From: Synergistales bacterium
Lineage (GTDB): Bacteria; Synergistota; Synergistia; Synergistales; JAFGMB01
NCBI GenBank assembly: GCA_963666205.1
Contig: OY762654.1
Span: 992,001-1,056,000 of the forward strand
Length of the DNA: 64,000 nucleotides
Direction of reading: 5' to 3'
The translations under genes were made by a program, and so were the position numbers. Of the stretch, positions 9,059 through 63,435 are shown one piece after another. The notes beneath the pieces are model-generated. The model made no database searches, had not been told where the DNA came from, and saw only the letters and a list, made by a program, of their open reading frames with translations. Positions within the stretch are counted from its first letter, which is position 1; each line of letters opens with the position of its first letter.

Positions 9059-10582
9059 CTATTTGAGAGAGAACAGATGTTTTTCCAGGTCTTCGGAGCT
9101 CAAGATAATACCCTCTCTTTCACTGGTCCAGACTTCCAGTTCCATACCCCCCAGGGTGTCTTTCCCAGCCAGTACTTTTACAGGAATTCCCATTTCTATG
9201 GAATCATCCAGTTTCGAGTTTATCTTTTTATCCCGATCATCAAAGAGAATTCTGAAGTTTTTGGATGAAAGATGAAGATACAGATCCTCAACCTCAGTAA
9301 AAAGAGCATCTTCCCTGGAAAGAGCAGAGATAAGATGAATGTCAAAGGCAGACCATCCTGCCAGATTGTCAGAGCCATAACCCATAACTGAGAGCAGTAA
9401 CTGTTCCAGGTCTATGGTTCCCCGCCATACCTGGGGATAGCATTTTTCCCTGTTTTCATTGATGTAAGTCAGAGAAGGATAGTCTTCGGAAAGATGCCTG
9501 GTAGAATAGAAAGCACCTATTTCCGTAAAATATCCCTTATCCATCATTCCTCCACAGGAAGGACAGGGGGAATCCTTTCCGAAGGCGGCTATATCGCGCA
9601 CCATATCGGCTTTGAAATCCCTTTCCCAGCATGCACCCCTGAAATGGAAATCCGGTTTGTTGGCACCTGCTGCCAGGTTTATCGCACCCTCAACGCTTTC
9701 ATCTGCTACTACTGTTATTTCTTCCGGCAGTCCAATGGGACCACAGAATCCGGCGACTTCCCCTACGGCATCTTTCAGCTCATTTTCAGTTGCTCTCCTG
9801 AGTTTTACCCCTCCAAGGTAAAAGGAAAGCTTCTCAAGGGAAATATCCCTGTCCCCTCTCATCAGAGCGACCACAATCTGACCGGTTCCATCATCCATAG
9901 CATAGAACATGGTCTTTAATGTCTGAGAAGGGGGCAGGTCCAGCTGCCTGCATAGTTCAACAATGGTTGTAGCTCCCGGAGTATATATTTCTTCTAGTTC
10001 TTCTTTTCCTCCATTAGAGACGGCGCTTCTGCCCATGGGAGAAGAGGTGAACCCCTTCCATCCACATGTGGGGCAGACAAGACCGTCCCTTAATCCAAGG
10101 GCCTTTTTATCTCCTTCTACAACCATAGCGATCCTCTCTCCGCTGGAAACGATCTCTTTCAATGAAGAGATCCTTATACCCCCGGGAAGCAGAGCTTCCC
10201 GGCAGGACTGAAGACAGGTTTCCATTTGTGTCGAGACATCGTCTTCCACAGCGGAAAAAGCTGTAAGCTGGATATTCCGGTTCTTTTCCTCCATAAGGAT
10301 CATCGGGAGCTGATCTTTTGTTTTCAGTACCCTTACCACCAAAGCGAATGCGGCTTCATTATGGTTACCCGATATTTCCTGAATACCTGTGTTTTCGAAG
10401 GTTCCTTTTAATTTTCCTGAGATCTGCGCAAGTAACCCTACCCCCAAAGGAGTGAGCAGTATTTCTTCAGCAGAATTGTCATAAACAGCATAGCCGGCCT
10501 TTACAAGCCTTATAAGTCTCTGATCCTTGACTTTTGCCGGATTATTCCTTGTTGTCGGTGCAAGAATTGAAGATAACCTCAT
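9059..10582 (-). CDS. Prolyl-tRNA synthetase paralogue with degenerate catalytic core and intact INS editing and anticodon-binding domains
   Basis: ProRS-like N-terminus (MRLSS..PT, KAG, TPLG); INS motifs TPGATTI, TLKT, GFCGP, GANKPDFH; C-terminal LFDDR...GIP. Motif 2 (FRxE) and motif 3 (YGIGxxR) not recognisable. GGAGG RBS before the ATG at 10582. Confidence 0.8.
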   Translation of the reverse strand: MRLSSILAPTTRNNPAKVKDQRLIRLVKAGYAVYDNSAEEILLTPLGVGLLAQISGKLKGTFENTGIQEISGNHNEAAFALVVRVLKTKDQLPMILMEEKNRNIQLTAFSAVEDDVSTQMETCLQSCREALLPGGIRISSLKEIVSSGERIAMVVEGDKKALGLRDGLVCPTCGWKGFTSSPMGRSAVSNGGKEELEEIYTPGATTIVELCRQLDLPPSQTLKTMFYAMDDGTGQIVVALMRGDRDISLEKLSFYLGGVKLRRATENELKDAVGEVAGFCGPIGLPEEITVVADESVEGAINLAAGANKPDFHFRGACWERDFKADMVRDIAAFGKDSPCPSCGGMMDKGYFTEIGAFYSTRHLSEDYPSLTYINENREKCYPQVWRGTIDLEQLLLSVMGYGSDNLAGWSAFDIHLISALSREDALFTEVEDLYLHLSSKNFRILFDDRDKKINSKLDDSIEMGIPVKVLAGKDTLGGMELEVWTSEREGIILSSEDLEKHLFSLK

Positions 10583-10653
10583 TTTATTGACCTCCTGTAA
10601 AGATGTTCTGATCAAGAGCTGATATCTGTGACCGGTAAAAAGGTTTTCAGAGA

Positions 10654-10998
10654 TCATACCATCTTCATGGCTATCATGACCTGTTCCAGGTCAATAAGGG
10701 CAAAATCTCCATCTGCTTCCGGATCATCATAAAAAACCTGTGAGCGAAATCTCTCCACCGCTTTTTCCAGAAGAACCAGTCCCTTCATATCCATGTCATT
10801 TGAAGAGCTGTTTACAAGGATGGACCTGTATGGATTCATAAAAAGCCTCTGGTTTGCAGGCAAAGGCATACTCACAAGATCATGACCGGATTCCAGATAC
10901 TTCCTCACTTCAAGAAGTACGTCCAGGGGATTCCCCCTTACGGGATGATTATCTTCTATCTTATCCAGAACAAAAGGATTGTTGCTTATAACTTTCAA
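10654..10998 (-). CDS. grdX: GrdX family protein
   Basis: ISNNP, GHDLVSMPL..N...NPYRS, DFALID motifs; directly downstream of grdA. Confidence 0.85.
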   Translation of the reverse strand: MKVISNNPFVLDKIEDNHPVRGNPLDVLLEVRKYLESGHDLVSMPLPANQRLFMNPYRSILVNSSSNDMDMKGLVLLEKAVERFRSQVFYDDPEADGDFALIDLEQVMIAMKMV

Positions 10999-11084
10999 CT
11001 GTGAACACTTCCTTCAGGCCTATACATTTTTATCAGGTGGACGGGGCTTTTCGCCCCGTCCGCAATATCCAAAGGGGGGAACCT

Positions 11085-11561
11085 TTAGATAGAGAACTGG
11101 CTGAATTCTTCTCTCATTGATTTCACTGCTGCACAGAGACCGTCAGTATCCAGAACCATCTCCATCATAGAGATATTTTCTTCCCATGCGGCTTCATCAG
11201 CTTCGTTACGAATTTCATCTTCAAAAATGTCATATACGGCGAGTCCCAACTGGACTCCGGCCAGTGGACCTGCAAAAGTCGGATCTCCGTTTGCAACGGT
11301 TTCAGCATAGATCTCTGCACCTTCGGCATCAGAAGAACCAAGTACTACTACCAGGTTCTCTTTGCCGTATTTATCGGCTGCATCCTTTATCCTCTGCTGA
11401 TTCTGCAAATCCATAGCACCTGCCGCAGTTCAGACAAAACATTCCGTAACTGAAAATACTATCTCTGCTCCTGAGTCTTTCAGACATGCTTCCATTGCTG
11501 GTCCGGGAACTCCGTCTCTTTCTCCCAGAAGAAGCATTTTCTTTCCTGCTAATCTACCCAT
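11085..11561 (-). CDS. grdA: Glycine/sarcosine/betaine reductase selenoprotein A (Sec at UGA 11430-11432)
   Basis: [18 protein letters not shown]...[17 protein letters not shown]...[12 protein letters not shown] reads through the in-frame TGA; GGAGG RBS; 158 aa. Confidence 0.95.
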
Positions 11562-11639: not shown

Positions 11640-12950
11640 TTATTCTTTAAATATGGTCTGTTCCTTTATTTCTGTAGACATAGCCTTGAAAGCCCTCTGA
11701 AGGAGCTCTCTTCTCTTCTTCCTGTCTCCTTCGGGTCCTGATTCAGGATCTCCTACCGGATGAGGGATAGCCACACCGGGAACTATCCTGTTGGCTCCAA
11801 CTGTGAGCATTATAGGTACTATTGTTGCTATCTGGACTACAGGGATACCGGCTTCTTTCTCTATTTCCCGAACCATCGATGCACCGCATCGGGTACAGGT
11901 GCCTCAGGTGGATGTGAGAATGACAGCATCAACACCAGCCTCTTTAAGTTCCTTGCCGATGGCCTGACCGAAACCTTCGGCATTGGCTACTGCTGTACCG
12001 GTTCCGGTAGTACAGTAAACGAAATCATGAAGCTTGCCGAAAACTCCTTCTTTTTCCATCTCCCGCATAATATCAAGGGGAAGGACTACATCAGGGTTAT
12101 CGTTCGCATATACCCTGTCATAACCTCCATGGATGGACTCGTAATTTTCCGGTGTAAGGTCTTCGAGTTCGGAGATATTGTATTTGCCGAATTTCTCAGC
12201 AGAAGAAACCCTTATGTGATCAGGATTACCGAAGGGAACGATGCCGCCGGAAGTACAAAGGGCAATAGTGGCCTTACTCAGGTCAGCAATGGGAGCTGCC
12301 GGATCTATCTTTTTGAATACCGGCATTTCGAGTTCTGTTTCGAAAGCTTCTCCCCGGATCTTCCTGAGCAGCATATCAACTCCTCTTTCTGCTCCTGACT
12401 TGTCATGGAAAAAGCTTTTACGGATACCTCTGTGGATATAACCTTCAAAGCGGGCTGGGCCAAGTTTCTCTTTTTTCAGCAGTTTCAGAGCAAGAGTAAC
12501 CATTCTGGACAGGGCATCTCTCATACCCCTGGCGCTGTCACTGGTTTCGACAATGTATGTTTTTTTATGGTACATTTCGACACCGGGGTTTTCCCCATAA
12601 AGGGCTGTAACTGTGGGGATCCCAAGCATTTCTCCCGCAGCTGAACATATATCACCACAGGCAACGCCATAACGGCCGGCATTGAAACCAGGACCGGCAA
12701 TAAGCATATCGGGCTTGAAAGCCTTTATCATTTCAACACACTCAGCCTGGGCTTTTTCCATATTCTCACCGTAATAACTGTCACCGCAGATAACCGTACC
12801 TACGACTTCGGCCTCTCCCTGAAGCAGGTTCTGAAGCTGAAGTCCGGGACCCACTATCCCGTCCCGGGATGATGGTGGTACATGGGCTGTATCTTCTCCG
12901 CCCATTCCTGCATAAAACTGATTTATATAATGAACAACCCTGTAGGTCAT
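11640..12950 (-). CDS. grdB: Glycine/sarcosine reductase selenoprotein B (Sec at UGA 11904-11906)
   Basis: HYINQF, AGPGFNAGRYG, ILTST-U-GTCTRCGA continuing in frame into the 11640-11876 ORF; 436 aa. Confidence 0.95.
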
Positions 12951-52457: not shown

Positions 52458-52710
52458 TGAATCGAAAATCTAAAATCCAAAATCCAAAATCGGTTAACCG
52501 CAGAGGGTCCGCCGTAAACCATCGTATAAAACCATTAGACCCAAGTAGTGGCGGACTTTCAGCGCTGAGGTTTCGCAGAGTAACACGCAGGAAGACAAGA
52601 ACCGTAGGGTGCTGCTTTAGCGCACCGAAACGACCAAGGTTGATAGATGTCACGAAATCGTAAATTTGTACCAGGAAGGACTTTCGGATCGGAGGGCACA
52701 GAGGAAAACA
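52458..52710. repeat. Mosaic repeat block 2 (reverse orientation)
   Basis: AAAATC(C/T) heptamers, GTAG palindrome at 52604-52626, reversed GGCAC hairpin at 52649-52672. Confidence 0.88.
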
Positions 52711-52804
52711 TAAGACATAAAAACCGTAGACCTTTTCACCTATATCATGAAATCCCTGCCTTATTCATTGAATAAACATAATGTACATGATAATATTTAA
52801 CCAT

Positions 52805-52834
52805 ACTTCAAAAATATCATGATAATTTTGAAGT
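52805..52834. promoter_or_regulatory. Palindromic operator-like site upstream of the AAA-DUF4143 gene
   Basis: ACTTCAAAAATATCATGATAATTTTGAAGT (one mismatched pair), with an extra half-site at 52837-52853. Confidence 0.6.
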
Positions 52835-52865
52835 TGACTTAAAAATTATCATAAGAGGTACCTCG

Positions 52866-54044
52866 ATGATCAAAAGATATATTGCAGATATTATCAGGGA
52901 AGATCTCCAACATAAAATGGTGTTCATAGGCGGCCCAAGACAGGTAGGAAAAACTACCCTCGCAAAAATGATAGGTGAAGATTACCCCTCTTTCACCTAT
53001 CTGAACTGGGATTTCCGCCCCCACAGAGAAGCTCTTGTAAGATCGACACTACCTGCTGAAACAAATCTCCTGATCCTTGACGAGATCCACAAATATCCTG
53101 ATTGGAAATCTCTGATAAAGGGGATCTGGGACACCAGGACAGGCGACGAATCCATTCTGGTAACTGGAAGCTCCAAGCTGGACATTTACAGAAGAGGCGG
53201 GGATTCTCTCCTTGGCAGGTACCACTATTTTCGACTTTATCCTTTGACTCTGAAAGAACTGAATTCTCAAGCTCCCGTAGGCATGGATTTCCCGGATAAA
53301 GCTCCGAAACTTGATCTGGACTTATCGGGGAAAGGATTGGACAAGCTCCTTTTTTTTGGAGGTTTTCCAGAACCTCTGCTTTCGGAAAGCGAAAGGGTAT
53401 TGAAAAGGTGGCAAAGAGAAAGATTTGAAAGGGTCTTCAGAGACGATATCAGGGAAACAGAGAACATAAGATCTCTTGCACAGATAGAGCTTCTGGCAGC
53501 TATGCTTCCATCCAGGGTGACATCACCCTTATCTCTGAATTCTCTGGCTGAAGACCTGGAAACCAGTTCAAACACAGTAAAAAGCTGGATGGATCTTCTT
53601 TGCAGAAATTATTTCACCTTTAAAATACCTCCATATCACAAGCGTCTTGAAAGGGCTCTCAAAAAAAGTTCTAAATACTATCTTTGGGACTGGTCCGAAA
53701 TAAAGGATGAAGGTGCACGTTTTGAAAACCTTATGGCAGTTCATTTGTTGAAATATGCACATTTTATCCAGGACAGCCATGGAATTTCTGTTGAACTGTA
53801 TTACCTCAGGGATACTGCTAAACGGGAAGTGGATTTTCTGCTGACTTGGCAAGACAAACCCTGGATTCTTGTCGAAACCAAGGTTAACCATGGTGATAGT
53901 TTAACCTCTCTGAACTATTTTGCAGATAAGCTTGGAGTTGATGAAAAATATGTAGTATGTCTGAATGATAAAAAAGATTACCTCGACAGGAACTCCGGCG
54001 TAAGGGTAATACCTGCAAGCAGATTTCTAATGTCCCTTGTGTGA
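52866..54044 (+). CDS. AAA_14 ATPase with DUF4143 (wHTH + PD-(D/E)XK-like) domain
   Basis: GPRQVGKTT Walker A, LILDEIH Walker B, VTGSS, LLGR, GGFPE, FEN, EVDFLL...LVETK. Confidence 0.92.
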   Translation: MIKRYIADIIREDLQHKMVFIGGPRQVGKTTLAKMIGEDYPSFTYLNWDFRPHREALVRSTLPAETNLLILDEIHKYPDWKSLIKGIWDTRTGDESILVTGSSKLDIYRRGGDSLLGRYHYFRLYPLTLKELNSQAPVGMDFPDKAPKLDLDLSGKGLDKLLFFGGFPEPLLSESERVLKRWQRERFERVFRDDIRETENIRSLAQIELLAAMLPSRVTSPLSLNSLAEDLETSSNTVKSWMDLLCRNYFTFKIPPYHKRLERALKKSSKYYLWDWSEIKDEGARFENLMAVHLLKYAHFIQDSHGISVELYYLRDTAKREVDFLLTWQDKPWILVETKVNHGDSLTSLNYFADKLGVDEKYVVCLNDKKDYLDRNSGVRVIPASRFLMSLV

Positions 54045-54046
54045 TC

Positions 54047-54929
54047 AGTCGTTTCGGTGCGCTAAAGCAGCACCCTACGGTTCTTGTCTTCCTGCGTGTT
54101 ACTCTGCGAAACATTTGCGCTTACAGTCCGCCTTAACGTCTTTGTAAGATGGTTTGCGGCGGATCCTCTGCGGTAAACCGATTTTAGATTTTGGATTTTA
54201 GATTTTGGATTAGATCCATTGAGTTCCTCCGTGGTGAAAGGGTTTTAACGGTTCAGCTTTACGGTTCTTAGGTTTAACTCGTGCAAAATAGTATCACCGT
54301 TTTGCGCAGTAGAAAAAAGATTTGAGGGCTTCCTCTGCGCTCTCTGCGCCCTCTGCGGTAAAATAGCTTTTGATTTTGACCTGGGTTCCCTCCGTGGTGA
54401 AAGGGTTTAACGGTTCAGCTTTACGGGTTTTCATGGCACAAAGCTGCGCTTTCGTGCCTCCACAAAACCTTTATCTCAGTAGCATCTGGTCCGAATGTAC
54501 GAATCTTTCATCTTACTCCTGAAGAGTTACCCCAAGGGTTTATGTCTTCCTCTGCGCTCTCTGCGCCCTCTGCGGTAAAATAGCTTTTGACTTTGACCTG
54601 GGTTTCCCTCCGTGTACCTCCGTGCCCTCCGTGGTGAAAAAGTTTGGGGTGGATGTTATAGTTACTGGTTTTATTGTTTCCATGGCACAAATCTCCGATT
54701 TCGTGCCTCCCCAAAACCTTTATCTCAGTAGCATCTGGTCTGAATGGATGTTGACATGGAACTCAACTTTATCTTACCGGCCCGAAGGTCCGCCCGTCCA
54801 CGGTTTGTTTAGATGGGTTTTGGCGGATTTCCTCTGTGCTCTCTGCGCCCTCTGCGGTAAAACAGCTTTTGACTTTGACCTGGTTTCCCTCCGTGGTACT
54901 CCGTGTCCTCCGTGGTGAAAAGGTTTGGG
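54047..54929. repeat. Mosaic repeat block 3
   Basis: 65-bp inverted copy of 52570-52634, 7-mer array, three CTCTGCG 9-mer arrays, hairpins at 54281, 54435 and 54684. Confidence 0.92.
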
Positions 54930-56294
54930 TCAGGATCTCCAATAATCACATACCAGGTCTTCCAGCCTTACCAGGTTAATATCCTCTGATGATTCCAACC
55001 CCTTGAAACCTGACCTGGAGAATATATAAAATACCGTTCTGCTGCAATCCCTTCCGACTACTTTCCGGATCTTGTCAGCCTTACCTGCCAGATCCATGAA
55101 AACCCTTGAATTTGCCGGCTCACGAGTCCATTTACATTCACCAAGCACCAGGGTCTCGCCCTTTACAGCCACTATATCAACCTCATCCTCACCATCCCAC
55201 CACCTGCCCATACCTTCAGGGTTTATCCAATCTTTCAGAACCTGCCTGCAGATCTTCTCCCAGGTAAAGGAAGTATGCATAGAAAGAGTGGATGAGATCT
55301 TTTCCTGGACATCAGACCCTCTCTCCCTATAGATAAGTTCCTGATCGTCCAGCAGATACCTGAAATAAAAACGCAGATACTCATCCTCGATGAAGTACAG
55401 GGGGATCTTTTTAGGTCTTTTCAGGGAGAAGGGAAGTTCCTTGCGGATCAGTCCAAGCTCAAGGAGATTCCTCAGGTAAGTTGAAATGTTCTGATGGGGA
55501 ATACCAGTGATCTGTGCTATTTCGGATGCCCTGGTCCTGCCCTTTGCAATTGTCCTCAGGATCGAAAAATATGAAGTTGGATCCTTTTTGAACTCCTCCA
55601 TAACCAGAAAACGGCCCTCTTCCACTAGAAATTCACCAGGGCTCAGCATCGATTCCTTCAGTGCATTATTAAAAGAACCGTGTCCAGACATCTTCTTGAG
55701 ATAAAGAGGAATTCCCCCAACTGCAGAATATGTTTTTACCTGGTCTTCCATGTTCAGGTCAGGTAAAAATTTTCTTGCCTGCAGAAATCCCATAGGATCG
55801 ATACGGTATTGCCCTGTTCTTCTGCCATATATGGGACTGCTCTCTGCCAGGGTGATTCTTTCCATCATGCCGATAAAGGAACCGCAAAGCACCATCATCA
55901 CCGGCAGTTTACTGAATACCTGATCCCACCATCTCTGAAAAAGGGAAAGAAAGGAATCATCCTTGATGGGAATATACTGAAATTCGTCCCATACGATAAC
56001 CAGTTTTTCTCTGGATAATTTGATCATCTTTTCCAGAAGGGAGAACATCTCATCCCATTTAGTGACTTCCAGAGACAAAGGCAGTTCTGCTTTTTCTTTA
56101 AGGGGAATAGAGAACCTGTTGATCAGCTGCTGCGGTTCAGACATATCAGCAGTCAGGAAAAGAGCTCCGGGAAATGTGTTCTCAAGGAGGAAAGTCTTCC
56201 CTACCCTTCTCCTGCCATATATAACGACCAGCTCTGCATTTTCAGACCTGAACTTTTTTTCAAGAAATTCTTTCTCCTGTATCCGATCTATCAT
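54930..56294 (-). CDS. Archaeal-type ATPase with DUF234 (wHTH + PD-(D/E)XK-like) domain
   Basis: YGRRRVGKT, VWDEFQ, LCGS, YGRRT, GGIPLYL, EVDIVA...LGECKW; start at MIDRIQE. Confidence 0.92.
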   Translation of the reverse strand: MIDRIQEKEFLEKKFRSENAELVVIYGRRRVGKTFLLENTFPGALFLTADMSEPQQLINRFSIPLKEKAELPLSLEVTKWDEMFSLLEKMIKLSREKLVIVWDEFQYIPIKDDSFLSLFQRWWDQVFSKLPVMMVLCGSFIGMMERITLAESSPIYGRRTGQYRIDPMGFLQARKFLPDLNMEDQVKTYSAVGGIPLYLKKMSGHGSFNNALKESMLSPGEFLVEEGRFLVMEEFKKDPTSYFSILRTIAKGRTRASEIAQITGIPHQNISTYLRNLLELGLIRKELPFSLKRPKKIPLYFIEDEYLRFYFRYLLDDQELIYRERGSDVQEKISSTLSMHTSFTWEKICRQVLKDWINPEGMGRWWDGEDEVDIVAVKGETLVLGECKWTREPANSRVFMDLAGKADKIRKVVGRDCSRTVFYIFSRSGFKGLESSEDINLVRLEDLVCDYWRS

Positions 56295-56314
56295 ATGCGC
56301 ACCCCCAAAATCAA

Positions 56315-56357
56315 AAAATACAGAAGATATATTCTGCAAATATATCTTCTGTATTTT
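56315..56357. promoter_or_regulatory. Perfect 19-bp inverted repeat upstream of the ATPase-DUF234 gene
   Basis: AAAATACAGAAGATATATT-ctgca-AATATATCTTCTGTATTTT, ending about 20 nt before the start codon. Confidence 0.65.
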
Positions 56358-56384
56358 AAGGGCTGCTCTTATAAATTGCAAATA

Positions 56385-56770
56385 GTCCTTTCGGTGCGCT
56401 CTCTGCGGTAAACCAGCTTTTGCCTTAGGTTTTATGTTTTCCTCAGATATTCCTCCGTACCCTCCGCAGTAAAAGTGTCTACTGTTTTCAGGTTTTATGT
56501 TTCCCTCTGTGCCCTCCAGGTCTAATCTTTACCATGGCACAAAGCTGCGCTTTCGTGCCTCCACAAAACCTTAAAGTTAAGATGTAATCTATCTGAACTG
56601 TCAAAAAAGGAATAAATCCTGAATATTATGTCAAAGAAGTCTTGTTTTCCTCATGTTTTACCTCTGCGGTACTCTGCGTGACCCCTGCGCCCTCTGCGGT
56701 AAAACAGGTTTTGACTTTGACCTGGGTTTCCCTCCGTGGTGAAAGGGTTTTAACGGTTCAGCTTTACGGG
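56385..56770. repeat. Mosaic repeat block 4
   Basis: Half REP-like GTCCTTTCGGTGCGCT, 9-mer arrays, GGCAC hairpin at 56536, CGGTTCAGCTTTACGGG module. Confidence 0.85.
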
Positions 56771-58905
56771 GTATCTCCCCTTCGGTAATTCCCGCTCAGG
56801 TAATCATACAACCCATACACCCGCACCGGATCCTCCAATACCCTGCCCCCCATATCCGCACAGTACCTCTCCAGTTCCTGGTATAGATTCTTCCCCAGCA
56901 CATCCGGGTTAAGCTGCCTCAGAAGCTGTTCCGGGGTCTGCCAGGCACCGGGCTGACGGGCAGCATAGTAATTCCATGTAGACAGAAGGGTGAATTCCGA
57001 AGTCCATGTGTGGGCACTTTCCCTGCCGAACCAGTAATCCGCCGGTATCTCCAGATACATGCCAGCATTGCTGTAACTTTTGTCCATGGTCAGGTTATCC
57101 GTTCTGGCGATCCAGAATCCCACACCAAGGTTGTTCCACCACCTGGTCGCAGAAAACCTGGCACCCCAGTCACCGTCTATAAAGACACCGTACTCTCCAG
57201 TAAGGTCAAGGTCATAAACAGGATCATGATAACCGGCCTGGGCCCAGTACTCCCACCACCACTCATCATCCGGATAACCTCTTCCCACGGTTATCCTGCC
57301 CGTTCCTCCGAATGTCACCGGCTTATCAGCCAGGGAAGCGAAACCCTCGGGGTCCCTTTCATGGACCACGCTCATCCGGCCCCCTACCCACCATCGGCCG
57401 TCATCGCTGTAAAACCTGGCCCATGCATTTCCGCCGAACCACTGGGCATCCAGCCACCCGGCCTCACCCAGGGCAAAGAACCTGTCGTTTATCTTGTAAA
57501 GGTAACTGAGAACACCCTTCCATATGCGGGTTTCGTCATTGGTCTCGGGTTCCCAGTAAATATCTATATCGTTATCGATGGGCTGGCGGATATCCATAAT
57601 GGCCTCCCAGCCATGGCTCGACCTCATGCGGTAGATCCAGTCAACACTCCAGCGGTCCATATAATCTTCCTGGAGGGTCCTGTCGATGCGGGGTTCGTAG
57701 ACAAGCATGGCCTTGAATTCCGAATTGCCCTTATGTCCCGACCTGCCAGGACCATAGTGGACAGGCCACTTGTCACGGAAAAGATCATCCCGGACCCAGG
57801 TGATTTCAGCCCCGGCCGCATCGGTTGCACTTATGTCGCCAAGGCGCAGTAGACCGCACTGGTAACCGGGAACTTCAAGAACACTGATGGCCTCGCCTCG
57901 AAGCCTTGGCACCAGGAAAAGGCTTTCCGTATCCCATGGAAGAAGCAGGGAAGTAAGGGTCATAACCCGGGCCATGGCCTCAGCCTGGGACGTATAGCCG
58001 ATATTCTCGTAGGCCACAAGGACTCTCCTGTCACCGATGAACACCTCCACATCCCGAACACCGACCCTGTTTCCGACATACTCCACAATCTGCTCTGCAA
58101 GACCTTCCAGGTCAGTTTTCTCCCAGTCGGGAAGGGTTACATCTGAAGATTCGGGAAGTGCATATTTCTTTTTATTTTTCCCGAAAAAGGGCTTCGTGAG
58201 GTCAAAATTGTATGAAAGGCCGAAACACCACTCCTCACCCCTCTGATAACTCAGGGAAGCATCCACACCCCAGGGGGTCTTCGCCACAAATCCCGCATTT
58301 ACCTTTGAATCGACATCCTCCGCGATGATCCGTCTGGAACCTATAGTATCCTGGCTGTAATCCAGAGGGCTGTACTCAGCCTTGACCTCAAGCCAGTCAT
58401 AGGGCTGCCATGAAAGGCCGCCGAAAAAGCCGTTAAGTCTGTCGCTGCCATAACCCCATGTGAGGGCAAGCCTGTCCCATTCCCAGGTGGCCACGCTGTA
58501 ATAGGCCTGCATTATCTTCGTACCCAGAATGTCCGTAACGCCAAAGGCAACACTGGGGCGGCACTCATCCTGTTGAAACATGAGAAATTTAAGGTCAATG
58601 GCCTTGTCCTTGTATTTTCCGTAACCTTCCGATATCTGTGGCCCCGTAGCGAAACGGGTAAGGCGCAGGTTCAGTTCCATCCAGGGAAAATAACCGAGGG
58701 AAATGTAGTATGGCCTGTAGGGCTCGAACCATGAAATGCCCACCCTGCCCATACCGTCACCGGGCACCTGTGCCGTGGGGTACTCCCACAGGCCGAGGAA
58801 TCCAGCATTGGAAGGACTTGCTCCGTATGAACTGCCTGTAAAGGCTGTAATAAGTAACAGAGAAAAGACAAAGACCGTTAAAAATATCCTGCGAAAAATG
58901 ACCAA
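56764..58905 (-). CDS. YjbH-domain outer-membrane protein (exopolysaccharide-related beta-barrel)
   Basis: Signal peptide, GFLGLWEYPTA, YKDKAIDLKF, VKAEYS, Trp/Tyr-rich beta strands. Confidence 0.82.
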   Translation of the reverse strand: MVIFRRIFLTVFVFSLLLITAFTGSSYGASPSNAGFLGLWEYPTAQVPGDGMGRVGISWFEPYRPYYISLGYFPWMELNLRLTRFATGPQISEGYGKYKDKAIDLKFLMFQQDECRPSVAFGVTDILGTKIMQAYYSVATWEWDRLALTWGYGSDRLNGFFGGLSWQPYDWLEVKAEYSPLDYSQDTIGSRRIIAEDVDSKVNAGFVAKTPWGVDASLSYQRGEEWCFGLSYNFDLTKPFFGKNKKKYALPESSDVTLPDWEKTDLEGLAEQIVEYVGNRVGVRDVEVFIGDRRVLVAYENIGYTSQAEAMARVMTLTSLLLPWDTESLFLVPRLRGEAISVLEVPGYQCGLLRLGDISATDAAGAEITWVRDDLFRDKWPVHYGPGRSGHKGNSEFKAMLVYEPRIDRTLQEDYMDRWSVDWIYRMRSSHGWEAIMDIRQPIDNDIDIYWEPETNDETRIWKGVLSYLYKINDRFFALGEAGWLDAQWFGGNAWARFYSDDGRWWVGGRMSVVHERDPEGFASLADKPVTFGGTGRITVGRGYPDDEWWWEYWAQAGYHDPVYDLDLTGEYGVFIDGDWGARFSATRWWNNLGVGFWIARTDNLTMDKSYSNAGMYLEIPADYWFGRESAHTWTSEFTLLSTWNYYAARQPGAWQTPEQLLRQLNPDVLGKNLYQELERYCADMGGRVLEDPVRVYGLYDYLSGNYRRGDTP

Positions 58906-58948
58906 CCACTCCCCGAAGAAAAGTCAAACAAAAAACGAACCAGAACAA

Positions 58949-59112
58949 TTTTACCGCAGAGGACGCAGAGAACGCAGAGGAAAGCGTAACCCTGAGTGAA
59001 CCATTTTTCTTTAACCTGCTGCGTATATATTTCCGAGTTCATCCGCTCAGACCTTATCCAACTTAGACTGAGGTTAATGGATGTCACATAATCATAGATT
59101 TGTGCCAGGAGA
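58949..59112. repeat. Mosaic repeat block 5 (reverse orientation)
   Basis: TTTTACCGCAGAGGACGCAGAGAACGCAGAGG and a reversed GGCAC hairpin at 59083-59106. Confidence 0.88.
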
Positions 59113-59149
59113 AACTCTAGCCATAAATTCTGGCTGGTTACTGGATTTA

Positions 59150-59527
59150 CTACAGCCCGTTGGCAAATCGGGTTATACCATCCTTAAGTTTGACTACATT
59201 GAAATTAATAAGCAATCCTAGTTTCTTGCCGCTCAGTTTCAAGTAAGAAAGGATCTGAGCCTTATGTATATCCGTTATTTTTTCAACGGATTTAAGTTCA
59301 ATAATAATCTCGTCCTCTACAACCAGATCCAGACGATAACCCAAGTCTATTTTGACTTCATCATAAATCACAGGAAGAACTTTCTGGGACTCAACTTTAA
59401 AGCCTCTTTTATTTAATTCATAACAAAGACAAGCTTCATATGAACTTTCGAGAAGACCCGGACCTAAAGCAGAATGTACTTTAACAGCGCTATCAATAAT
59501 TTCTTTGCTTATCTCATTTATCTCCAT
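59150..59527 (-). CDS. GxxExxY protein (PD-(D/E)XK nuclease-like fold)
   Basis: 125 aa; VHSALGPGLLESSYE, YRLDLVVE..IIIELKSV, AQILSYLK, GLLINF; visibly AT-rich. Confidence 0.95.
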   Translation of the reverse strand: MEINEISKEIIDSAVKVHSALGPGLLESSYEACLCYELNKRGFKVESQKVLPVIYDEVKIDLGYRLDLVVEDEIIIELKSVEKITDIHKAQILSYLKLSGKKLGLLINFNVVKLKDGITRFANGL

Positions 59528-59604
59528 AGGTCTGAATACCCCCCAATTCAGTCATGACAAAACCCTAACCATTCTACAACAAAATTGTTTTTGGTTTTGC
59601 CTCT

Positions 59605-60102
59605 AAGTCGTGCAAAACCGAGTCTGGTTTTGCGCAGTAGGAAAAAGATTTGCGGGTTTCCTCTGCGCTCTCTGCGCCCTCTGCGGTAAAACAGGTTTGA
59701 GGGTAGATTTTATAGTTTCCGTTTTTATTGTTTCCATGGCATAAATCTACGATTTCATGCCATACATCAACTTTGAGGTAAAGTAGTATCTAGTCCGAAC
59801 ATTCTGAACCCAGAATTGGGAAAATCCCATATTCCGCAATGTTTTAAGCTTTTCCTCCGCGGTACTCTGCGCTCCCTCTGTGTCCTCTGCGGTAAAACAG
59901 GTTTGAGGGTAGATTTTATAGTTTCCGTTTTTATTGTTTTCATGGCACAAATCTACGATTTCGAGCCTCCCCAAAACCTTTATCTTCGTAGGATATGGTC
60001 TGTCCGGACAAATATCACATGTTATTCATGAACAGTTATACCAAGGTTTTACGCCTTCCTCCGTGGTAAAAGGGTTATAACGGTTCAGCTTCACGGGTTT
60101 TA
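59605..60102. repeat. Mosaic repeat block 6
   Basis: Hairpin at 59610, 9-mer arrays at 59657 and 59865, near-identical about 78-bp tandem copies at 59679 and 59885, GGCAC/GGCAT hairpins at 59738 and 59944. Confidence 0.92.
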
Positions 60103-60142
60103 CTCTTGAAAAAGGAAACTTCATGTTTCAAAGTAAACCATT

Positions 60143-60724
60143 TTATTTTACTCTCATTACAACTCCGCCATTGCCCCCAACATTTGCTGGATTTTCCGAT
60201 GCTATAAATAAACTCTTCGAAGGATCATCAAGATTCTCGCTCAGGGAACCATCATAGATCCCGCTTTCGGGAGACATCCTTTCCAGCTGTTTTCTGATCG
60301 AATAATCCGCATAGGTATTAGTAACATTGGCTGCAACATAAATATGAACATCTGGAGTGGCATAGGAAGGATCGCTTCCCGGCCCGGAAACATAGATAAA
60401 GTACGGGTTCTTTGAAGCATTATTCCAATCCTTTGGACCCGTTATACTGTGAGGTTCAGGTATACCCCTGTCCAGGTATTGGCTCAGGCTGTTTATGCTA
60501 ATTACACCCCAACCCTGCTCACTCTGGGAAAACCACTGCTGATTATCAGCATAGTACATAACTACTGCAGTCTTGAGAACTTCCAGGTTTGAGACTATCT
60601 TTGTCGCCTCGCTCTTACTGGTCGCGCTTCCGATTGTGATCATAAGAGAACCTGAGAGAATGCCTATAATGATGATTACAATGAGGATCTCTATAAGGGA
60701 AAAACCTCTGCTGCGCTTTTTCAA
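60143..60724 (-). CDS. Type IV pilin / prepilin-type N-terminal methylation protein
   Basis: MKKRSRG|FSLIEILIVIIIIGILSG class III signal, followed by SKSEATKIVSNL..LKTA..MYYAD. Confidence 0.9.
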   Translation of the reverse strand: MKKRSRGFSLIEILIVIIIIGILSGSLMITIGSATSKSEATKIVSNLEVLKTAVVMYYADNQQWFSQSEQGWGVISINSLSQYLDRGIPEPHSITGPKDWNNASKNPYFIYVSGPGSDPSYATPDVHIYVAANVTNTYADYSIRKQLERMSPESGIYDGSLSENLDDPSKSLFIASENPANVGGNGGVVMRVK

Positions 60725-60917
60725 CTCTCAATTACCTCCCTGGCTGATTAGTATGTGGGATCTTGAACACCATTGAATAGTGTACAGACCTGTTTTCTAA
60801 CCACCAGGGCAAAAAAGCCTGTTTTCCAGGGGACAGGAAGACCAATTTCCCAGGGACTTATGGACCATTTGTATTTCTCATTCGCTCAAGTCCCCCATAC
60901 CTGGGTGTATTTAGCCT

Positions 60918-61520
60918 TATCGGTGCGCTGGAGCGCACCCTGCAAAACTTTATCTTACCGGGCCGAAGGTCCGCCCGTCCTCGATTTGTTTAGTGGGTTT
61001 TGGCGGCTTTCCTCCGTGGTAGAAAGGTTTACGGTTCTAAGGTTCCAATCGTGCAAAATAGTATCACCGTTTTGCGCAGCATGTATTATAACAAGTGGTT
61101 ATGACTTTCCTCCGTGCTACTCCGTGACCTCCGTGGTAGATAGGTTTTAGCGTTTGGGCTTTACGGGTTTTCATGGCACAAATCTACGATTTCGTGCCTC
61201 CCCAAAACCTTTATCTTCGTAGGATATGGTCTGTCCGGACAAATATCGGATGTTATTCCTGTTCAGGTATACCAAGGTTTTACGCCTTCCTCCGTGTCCT
61301 CCGTGGTGAAAGGGTTATAACGGTTCAGCTTTATGGGTTTCCATGGCACAAATCTTCGATTTCGTGCCTCTCAAAAACCTCAATCTTAGTAGTATTGGAT
61401 CTTGCAAAACATAACCAAAGATTAGTCGCAGCATATTTATACAAAAGGGGTTAAGCTTTCCTCTGCGCTCTCTGCGCCCTCTGCGGTAAAACAGGTTTTG
61501 ACTCTGATTTTGACTTTGGT
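60918..61520. repeat. Mosaic repeat block 7
   Basis: REP-like GGTGCGCTGGAGCGCACC at 60922, hairpins at 61051, 61175 and 61345, 9-mer array at 61461. Confidence 0.9.
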
Positions 61521-61526
61521 TTTGAT

Positions 61527-61558
61527 AAAAAAAGAGGATAGCCTTTCGGCTACCCTCT
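61527..61558 (-). terminator. Rho-independent terminator
   Basis: AGAGGGTAGCC-GAAA-GGCTATCCTCT followed by a T run on the minus strand. Confidence 0.75.
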
Positions 61559-61579
61559 CTCAATTATCTTCTCAGCTTA

Positions 61580-62137
61580 TTACTTCAGCAGCCACACCAG
61601 CGGTAAAGCCAGCAGACCCATCAGAGGGCTTACAGCCCCGGCGTTACAACCGCCGCCACCGCCACCACCGGAAGTCTCTTCTTCTGCATTTACAAGATAG
61701 ACCTGGGAAGTTGAAAAATACAGAGAAGGATCTGTTATTGTGGCAACTCCATTCACGACCTCGATAAAATCATAATAATCAGAATGATTCTGGATCAATA
61801 TACCATCGGGATCAAGACCGGTACCCCTCACATCAATGGTTACTGTTCCAACAGGCGTAGTATCGTAGACTGCTTCCACACCCGCAAGGACGACGATCGT
61901 ATAAGTTCCGCTTACCGGCATATTAATATGATCACTGGTCACGCTGGAACTTAAAATACAAGAGGCACAGGAGTCCGTATCTGGAGAAAATATGATAGTC
62001 CCTGGATCAATGGACGTGTAAATCTCCGTATCGACATGTCCAACATGGCCTATATCATGACCTACCACAGCCATACCTACCGACGCAAAAACAAGAACAA
62101 GTGCTGCAGAAACTGCAAAAAGAACAACTTTTTTCAT
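61580..62137 (-). CDS. Synerg-CTERM sorting-signal surface protein
   Basis: N-terminal signal peptide and C-terminal SGGGGGGGCNAG..PLMGLLALPLVWLLK. Confidence 0.88.
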   Translation of the reverse strand: MKKVVLFAVSAALVLVFASVGMAVVGHDIGHVGHVDTEIYTSIDPGTIIFSPDTDSCASCILSSSVTSDHINMPVSGTYTIVVLAGVEAVYDTTPVGTVTIDVRGTGLDPDGILIQNHSDYYDFIEVVNGVATITDPSLYFSTSQVYLVNAEEETSGGGGGGGCNAGAVSPLMGLLALPLVWLLK

Positions 62138-62308
62138 GAATATATCCCCCTCCAGAAGAGAAATGATAAAAAATCAGTTATAACGTATACAGAAACGAAC
62201 CAACCCGGATTATAAACCTAACAACTTTATAGAGCAATATTAAAAAGATCTGAATACCGGAAATGTTACATTAGACCTATCCACCACAAAGGAAATATTT
62301 AAAAACAT

Positions 62309-63435
62309 GTTTAACCGCAGAGGACGCAGAGAAAACCGGGAGGAAAGCATAAAAACATCGCTATGTAGATTTTATTAATCTCCTGTTTTATATATACATG
62401 ACCTGATCCTACTAAGATAAAGGTTGATGTATGGCATCAAATCATCGATTTGTGCCAGGAAGCAAATATTTACAGTGGGCATCGAAGAAAATAACCTGGT
62501 TTTTTACCTGGAATATTTTAAATTGACTTAATTTTTATGTTCCATCATGTGATACCAGCGGCAGAAAAAGGTTCTCTTTTCTGCCGGCAGTCAACCTTAA
62601 AAAACAAAGAAATATTGTAATAAAACCGTAGAGTCAAAAACATTGCCCAAATTAAGTTTCAGTACTTGGGTTCCCTCTGCGCTCTCTGCGCCCTCTGCGG
62701 TTAGCTTAGGGTTAATAGGGGTAAAAGGTTTACGGTTCAGGTTTACGGGACCAATCGTGCAAAATAGTTCCATCATTTTGCGCAGCATAACAAGGAGTGT
62801 TAAGGGCCGAATGTCCGGCCAACCCGGCTTTAAGTTTTTTAGGAAGATCTTTGACGGAGGTTTTTGGCGGGTTTCCTCTGCGGTAAAAGAAAGATACTGA
62901 ATTTGTTTTTGACTTTGGTTTTATTGGTTAAGAGGTTTTCCTCTGTGACCTCTAGTTCGAAAGCACTACCTGGCACAAATCTACGATTTGGTGCCATACA
63001 TCAACCTCAGTCTAAGTAGCATAAGATCTGAGTGGACGTAACATCGGAATAAACACGCAGTATATGGATAAAATGGTTTGACGGGTTTCCTCAGGGTCTA
63101 CCTCTGCGAAACTCTGCGTAACCTCAGCGTCCTCTGCGGTAAAACAGCTTTTGATTTTGACCTGGTTTCCCTCCGTGTCCTCCGTGGTAGATAGGTTTTA
63201 GCGTTTTGGCTTTACGGGTTCCCATGGCACAAATCTCCGATTTTGTGCCTCCGGAAAAACTTGTTCACCAGGTTTTGTAAGTTTCAGGTTCTCGTTCTTA
63301 ATCGTGAAAAATCTAGTCTGATTTTTCGCAGCATGTTTCTTAAATCATTTGGTCTCGTTTTCCTCTGCGCTTCCTCTGCGCTCTCTGCGCCCTCTGCGGT
63401 AAAATAGCTTTTGACTTTGACCTGGTTTCCCCTCC
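62309..63435. repeat. Mosaic repeat block 8 (reverse 62309-62460, forward 62670-63435)
   Basis: Reversed 9-mer array and GGCAC hairpin, an AT-rich gap, then forward 9-mer arrays and hairpins at 62757, 62972, 63226 and 63304. Confidence 0.88.

Follow-up and report, generated by a model that had tools for sequence, protein, structure and literature searches.

A 24-nucleotide bulged hairpin between the genes of a Synergistales polysaccharide island, possibly the core of a genus-restricted mosaic repeat

A bulged hairpin of 24 nucleotides (nt) occurred 12 times in a 64,000-nt stretch of the genome of a Synergistales bacterium (assembly GCA_963666205.1, contig OY762654.1, positions 992,001 to 1,056,000; hereafter the window). 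The source genome (G000) was a single contig of 2,948,783 bases and was compared with another genome of the same genus (G001). Constant geometry and pairing-preserving changes among the copies supported selection on the hairpin structure, with the caveat that few of the compensatory events were independent. The element is tentatively regarded, with somewhat less than an even chance, as the conserved, structure-constrained core of a genus-restricted mosaic intergenic repeat that works like repetitive extragenic palindromes (REPs) and the bacterial interspersed mosaic elements (BIMEs) that contain them.

The window was searched with the pattern GGCACAAATC-nnn-GATTT-n-GTGCC at up to three mismatches, with 100 shuffles as control. 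The search returned exactly the 12 copies that the original prediction had listed, nine on the forward and three on the reverse strand (0 to 3 mismatches; Table 1), against 0.01 copies expected from the shuffles (largest 1). The loop was TAC in five copies, TGC in two, TCC in two, and TTC, TAT and GAT in one each, and the bulged base was C in eight, G in two and T in two. The predicted double changes AAAGC/GCTTT (54435 and 56536) and GGCAT/ATGCC (59738) were present. The reverse-strand copies were mismatched at pair 2-23 (G.A; 52649 and 59083) or at pair 5-20 (C.A; 62433).

Structure and flanks were analysed in an alignment of 45 copies from both genomes (32 distinct sequences). The geometry was fixed at 24 nt, with ten pairs, a loop of three bases and, in the 3' arm, a single additional base, and no bulge-less form, two-base bulge or loop of two or four bases was found at up to two mismatches. 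The predicted constancy of loop and bulge positions held, with the small correction that in the reverse-strand copy at 59083 A18, one position deeper in the stem, can serve as the unpaired base in place of T19. Paired cells amounted to 94.1% (reached by 0 of 500 shuffles), and the covariation score was 0.140 compared with 0.055 ± 0.010 in the shuffles (0 of 500 as high); the signal was lost when the partner columns were slid. Double changes that kept the pairing occurred at 4 of the 10 pairs, a number reached by 5 of 500 shuffles. The proposal that structure, and not sequence alone, has been selected was therefore supported, with the reservation that the copies are related to one another.

Among the distinct sequences, pair 9-15 was U-A in 27 and G-C in 5 and was broken in none, pair 5-20 was C-G in 25, U-A in 3 and broken in 4, and pair 2-23 was G-C in 20, C-G in 2, U-A in 1 and broken in 9, mostly as G.A; pair 7-17 was G-C in one sequence. 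At least five compensated pair states were counted, at four pairs. One divergent G001 copy had an additional base pair formed by both arms and retained the bulge. A process that merely perfects palindromes is unlikely, because the bulge was never removed and the G.A mismatch persisted in both genomes. The stem variants ATC/GAT and AGC/GCT swapped at positionally equivalent sites of G000 and G001, for which conversion from a pool of copies would be a simpler explanation than recurrent mutation, and for this reason few compensatory events may be independent.

Between-genome differences were counted without gaps in 10 positional G000/G001 pairs. Per 240 bases, they numbered 87 at 48-25 nt before the hairpin, 64 at 24-1 nt before it, 21 in the hairpin itself, 44 at 1-24 nt after it and 97 at 25-48 nt after it; the higher conservation of the hairpin is partly ascertainment, because copies and pairs were picked via the hairpin. 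These counts bear on the quite improbable alternative that the hairpin has no function and is a neutral palindromic relic that local duplications carried along and gene conversion homogenised. Conversion would yield the observed swapping of two stem variants at equivalent sites, but alone it leaves unexplained the compensated pair states and the constant loop and bulge geometry. No half-changed pair 9-15 was seen among the 45 copies, and the hairpin had 2 to 4.6 times fewer between-species differences than its flanks, which also count against a relic; the restriction to one genus, the strong clustering and the decayed copies described below agree with it.

The source genome held 18 copies at up to four mismatches, every one with the whole or part of the family tail. 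Fifteen of them lay within 41 kb (1,044,649-1,085,907, or 1.4% of the genome), and the others were single copies at 1,417,856, 1,451,921 and 2,106,016. G001 held 25 copies at up to three mismatches and 27 at up to four, about 29 in all, and 21 of the 27 were on one contig stretch syntenic with the G000 cluster. Among 61 related genomes the motif was multi-copy in G001 only; five others had one three-mismatch match each, about equal to the reversed control pattern. A covariance model of hairpin plus tail gave 19 matches in G000 and 30 in G001, and none in 149 other genomes of the same order. A degenerate exact scan across genomes of 185,579 species returned multi-copy contigs only under the name 'MAG: Acetomicrobium hydrogeniformans', with 44 single matches elsewhere against about 35 expected by chance by our own arithmetic. 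A metagenome scan in which three pairs were left free yielded 51 single matches; every one lacked the family tail, and 4 of them had complementary bases at each of the three free pairs. The hairpin had no match in plasmid or phage collections. Rfam returned nothing at the hairpins, whether at the gathering threshold or with E values up to 1. The element was restricted to one genus.

A search of G000 with the tail alone gave 18 matches at E up to 10: 15 were tails of the known 18 copies, one belonged to half a hairpin, one was a tail without a hairpin (1077210) and one was noise. The half hairpin was a decayed copy beyond the window (G000 1058150-1058230; listed at 1058187), with the 5' arm only and the tail intact, upstream of a second PDDEXK_3 gene.

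In each unit the hairpin was followed by a tail of about 45-100 bases, and further repeat modules were attached. The base directly 5' of the stem was an invariant T, and the 5' side of the hairpin was one of several unrelated repeat modules, all with a TTYCMT end. The semi-conserved tail of the original prediction was real: AAC at +8 to +10 and both G of a GTAG word about 21-25 nt downstream were at least 90% conserved in the 45 copies. RNAalifold gave no consensus structure for the tail. An outer helix around the hairpin, suggested by one fold, was rejected, as flank-versus-tail duplex energies were no better than in shuffles (mean z -0.38; 2 of 45 below -1.64). Tandem units of 170-250 bp were present. 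Relatedness of the left and right flanks (35 bases each side) was nearly uncoupled across the hairpin (r = 0.12, compared with 0.44-0.57 for other neighbouring blocks), and a sliding version of the test dipped from about -4 to +38, a dip expected in part because blocks there include the invariant hairpin.

Other repeated modules accompanied the units. A REP-like module stood about 17 nt past the hairpin, within the tail, in seven copies and in either orientation, and resembled the REPs beside a REP-associated tyrosine transposase (RAYT) gene at G000 2458050-2458595. Inverted pairs of this module bracketed the DUF4143 gene (window 52570-54112) and, at about 9400-11100 of G001 locus L013, a 384-aa gene missing at the syntenic site G000 1093192-1093537. 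There were also runs of 9-base units, of the types CCTCTGCGN and CCTCCGTGN, each with a GGTAAAA or GGTGAAA end, at window 54300-54400, 59650-59700, 63360-63410 and other places; a degenerate 11-mer for the end of these runs had 85 matches in the genome, 41 of them in 1.0-1.1 Mb.

The 1.04-1.09 Mb region that held the cluster was a polysaccharide island with a YjbH-family gene, a Wzz/GNVR co-polymerase, a Bac_transf priming transferase, glycosyltransferases, a Wzx-type flippase, an epimerase, a UDP-glucose dehydrogenase and ManC, together with accessory genes of a nuclease-like kind (AAA_14+DUF4143, ATPase_2+DUF234 and PDDEXK_3). Intergenic DNA in stretches above 150 nt made up 9.8 kb per 50 kb in the island and 4.4-4.6 kb in two control regions. 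In the island this DNA contained 173 14-mers seen at least three times. Neither control region had any, and the count was likewise zero at the yjbH paralogue locus and at the yjbH loci of two genomes from other families. Such loci therefore do not generally have a repeat mosaic, which is a trait of the island of this lineage.

All 45 copies lay between open reading frames (ORFs; own calls, at least 90 aa), and five overlapped short ORFs made of repeat sequence. Both neighbours were coded on the hairpin strand in 14 copies and on the opposite strand in 21, and the remaining 10 were mixed, after the neighbour had been reassigned for three copies where the called one was an ORF made of repeats. 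Orientation was thus independent of the genes. Copies occupied untranslated positions on the 5' and on the 3' side of island genes, at anything from tens of bases to more than 1 kb from a start codon.

The reading as a REP/BIME-type element supposes that the repeat unit multiplied mainly locally, inside the island of polysaccharide-synthesis and accessory genes. The element would fold as a single strand, either in DNA opened by replication or repair or in RNA, and its fixed shape of ten pairs, three-base loop and extrahelical base on the 3' arm would be required for copying or recombination. Duplication, conversion and reshuffling of units would follow, often with joints in the hairpin region. 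In this reading the folding in the cell, a recognising protein and the way in which copies spread are inferred; by analogy with known repeats, it is plausible that a protein reads the hairpin on single-stranded nucleic acid, as originally proposed.

REPs are described as intergenic palindromes of 20-50 nt, often bulged and preceded by a conserved tetranucleotide, mostly GTAG, which combine with other motifs into BIMEs, mosaic units repeated in tandem; in Escherichia coli their bulge is needed by the RAYT enzyme, which recognises the folded single strand strand-specifically (all in the account of PMC8266576). The present element is likewise a short imperfect intergenic palindrome in that size range, with a constant stem irregularity, and is combined with other conserved motifs into mosaic tandem units. 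The doublets of REPs known as REPINs (REP doublets forming hairpins) show compensatory changes and tandem clusters including flanks in Pseudomonas (PMC3116915), and both features recurred here. A REPIN, however, joins two inverted REPs into one long hairpin and relies on a RAYT, whereas the unit here was a single 24-nt hairpin with an unstructured tail, and inverted copies were not close doublets (nearest head-to-head pairs 164, 378, 380, 539 and 655 nt apart).

Several results weigh against the REP/BIME reading, besides the limits already given for the flank-coupling dip and for the conservation of the hairpin. Unlike in REPs, no GTAG adjoined the stem, the 5' flank being TTnCMT (GGGGA or GGAT on the other strand); copies numbered 18 rather than hundreds and were clustered, 15 of them within 41 kb; and they did not lie beside a RAYT gene. 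No enzyme could be linked to the element. G000 had three Y1_Tnp matches (1.557, 1.643 and 2.458 Mb), with no hairpin within 400 nt of any. One was the typical RAYT at 2458050-2458595, flanked by its own REPs, a different palindrome; it occurred in 1 of the 61 genomes, and none was found in G001 despite about 29 hairpin copies there. A long Y1-transposase-like gene, one of two and the one searched, occurred in 21 of the 61 genomes, 19 of which lack the hairpin. With such mismatched distributions both the RAYT and the long Y1 protein were rejected as partners. No bias to the lagging-strand template was seen, the drawn strand lying on it in 9 of 18 G000 copies (with the origin placed by GC skew at about 1.70 Mb and the terminus at about 0.06 Mb). 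A miniature inverted-repeat transposable element (MITE) would have terminal inverted repeats, a target-site duplication and both filled and empty sites; equivalent intergenic regions of G000 and G001 differed as patchworks, in which no target-site duplication was seen and neither a clean empty site nor a clean insertion boundary.

The named analogies of the original prediction (attC, IS200/IS605 and REP) did not hold as memberships, since the element lacked tested features of each: the integrase for attC, subterminal hairpins on one strand beside a Y1 transposase or tnpB gene for IS200/IS605 ends, and adjacent GTAG, RAYT, doublets and dispersal for REP. In its working the element would be most like REP/BIME, yet it stands outside their membership features. 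It is a genus-restricted variant of the structured intergenic repeats known in other bacteria, and unusual in its regional clustering in a polysaccharide island and in that no cognate enzyme was found. If the folded single strand is recognised, the partner must exist outside the known RAYT and integron enzymes, and the case would further illustrate how repeats can accumulate in a surface-polysaccharide locus and how it can trade accessory genes. As documented, the element adds a lineage-restricted case of structure-constrained intergenic repeats, a possible strain marker and a small test case for hairpin-binding assays.

The intergenic mosaic elements of Neisseria and the BOX elements of pneumococci are modular intergenic repeats whose modules combine variously around variable genes. 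The present repeat was modular in the same way, but those elements are dispersed genome-wide and bore no sequence relation to it in a comparison made via Rfam only.

Comparison with G001 showed that island synteny was retained, but inverted. The DUF4143 block (52691-54084) and the PDDEXK_3 block (58942-59756) were 98% identical to G001, compared with 85-92% for neighbouring genes, and suggest recent exchange or conversion; one block ended inside a hairpin (Table 1). The hairpin at 59083..59106 lies 44 nt past the stop of the PDDEXK_3 gene, and an identical one stood at the equivalent G001 site. The ATPase_2/DUF234 gene (54930-56381) had no counterpart at the syntenic G001 site, where the DUF4143 and yjbH-like genes were about 580 bp apart. 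Equivalent intergenic regions of the two genomes were patchworks, and a clean recombination joint at a hairpin was looked for at the DUF234 presence/absence site and none was seen.

The attC site of integrons is long, has two pairs of core sites and follows each cassette in uniform orientation. The hairpin resembles it in the extrahelical base, which gives the folded strand a polarity, and in its place between accessory genes, but is far shorter, with one ten-pair stem, and is mixed in orientation, with no integrase near. No tyrosine recombinase was found near the island, the six Phage_integrase matches lying at 0.198 Mb and from 2.526 Mb on. That the hairpin is an attC-like joint of gene cassettes, a folded single-strand site for the DUF4143, DUF234 and PDDEXK_3 genes and for repeat modules, is therefore highly improbable: the accessory genes are bracketed by copies, but so are core polysaccharide genes, and the presence/absence sites were patchworks rather than clean joints. 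In its favour are the two genes, DUF234 and the 384-aa gene, that were each present in one genome and absent from the syntenic site of the other, the 98%-identity blocks that end at or near hairpins, and the uncoupled flanks. A version free of an integrase, in which folded sites let accessory nuclease-like genes and repeat modules insert, duplicate and swap and so diversify the locus, is very unlikely as well.

Hairpin RNA was predicted to fold at -7 to -11 kcal/mol (z -2.9 to -4.5), and the reverse strand folded too (-9.4); the copy at 61175..61198 folded as drawn (RNA -9.2 and DNA -6.3 kcal/mol; z about -4.5). With the untranslated positions of copies, these energies would suit a cis element acting at RNA level in transcripts from the long intergenic parts of the polysaccharide locus, as a stabiliser, exonuclease barrier or processing site and with either strand transcribed; REPs have been given comparable roles in the introduction of PMC8266576. 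Metatranscriptome contigs 90-99% like the stretch (three runs) overlapped three copies (52647-53219, 62212-62527 and 62875-63154), but they come from RNA libraries of relatives, lack strand, ends and level, and may include DNA; the joints listed for these libraries fell in repeats. An RNA element nevertheless appears unlikely. It leaves unexplained flanks that are both conserved and asymmetric (T ahead of the stem, AAC behind it), such repeats are absent from the yjbH loci of other families, and there was no Rfam match. Neither strand was favoured, because single changes of G.U type and C.A type were equally common (3 vs 5 states).

An intrinsic terminator is a G+C-rich stem followed by a T run. 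None of seven terminator-like sites was a hairpin copy, and the 3' flank was TCCCCAAAA or ATCCATCAA, so the hairpin was rejected as a terminator. The only strong terminator-like site in the region was a 20-bp perfect palindrome with a T run at window 56315-56357, between the yjbH-like and DUF234 genes, which drew two weak chance Rfam matches. A specialised NusG paralogue, as in polysaccharide operon control of the ops/RfaH type, was set aside, the genome having a single NusG match, far from the island.

A near-palindrome in double-stranded DNA, bound as an operator by a dimeric regulator of the island genes, has little probability. Such an operator would be palindromic, indifferent to orientation, intergenic and concentrated in one functional locus, as the hairpin is, but the compensatory changes indicate bases that pair with each other, not bases that make specific contacts, and there is a one-base offset between the outer half-sites. 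Convergent genes flanked five of the 45 copies, start-codon distances varied as above, and promoter-like sites were not enriched (23 vs 18.1 ± 4.0). None of these promoter-like sites was at a hairpin, and a sigma-70 promoter was rejected with them. A sigma-54-type promoter at the TGGCAC start was rejected as well, the second consensus element being missing and 21 of 45 copies being antisense to both neighbours. The CodY box reported for Synergistetes is a different, AT-rich motif in the account of PMC9318921. A small ORF from a reverse-strand ATG was dismissed by eye, as ATG occurred in about half of the copies (CAT vs CCT before the stem) and the frames differed.

Table 1. Copies of the bulged hairpin in the window, numbered from its first base, with their strand and particulars
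Coordinates	Strand	Stem, loop, bulge and surroundings
52649..52672	-	GGTAC...GTGAC, loop TAC, bulge C; 3 mismatches; tail leftwards into REP-like module
54435..54458	+	AAAGC/GCTTT variant, loop TGC; tail to about 54508; RNA fold -11.2 kcal/mol
54684..54707	+	Consensus match, loop TCC; tail to about 54757; covariance model 88.3 bits
56536..56559	+	AAAGC/GCTTT variant; divergent tail
59083..59106	-	G.A at pair 2-23, bulge shifted by one; tail leftwards to about 59033
59738..59761	+	GGCAT/ATGCC variant (pair 5-20 U-A); 98%-identity block with G001 ends inside
59944..59967	+	A.A mismatch at pair 4-21; tandem unit, 206 nt past previous copy
61175..61198	+	Consensus match, loop TAC; best covariance-model match, 89.8 bits
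61345..61368	+	Consensus match, loop TTC; tandem unit, 170 nt past previous copy
62433..62456	-	C.A mismatch at pair 5-20, loop GAT, bulge G; 296 nt upstream of 185-aa gene
62972..62995	+	Consensus match, bulge G
63226..63249	+	Consensus match, bulge T; divergent tail; covariance model 52.5 bits

Elsewhere in the window, a SECIS_4 match reached the gathering score (38.4 bits) at 11866-11903 on the reverse strand.

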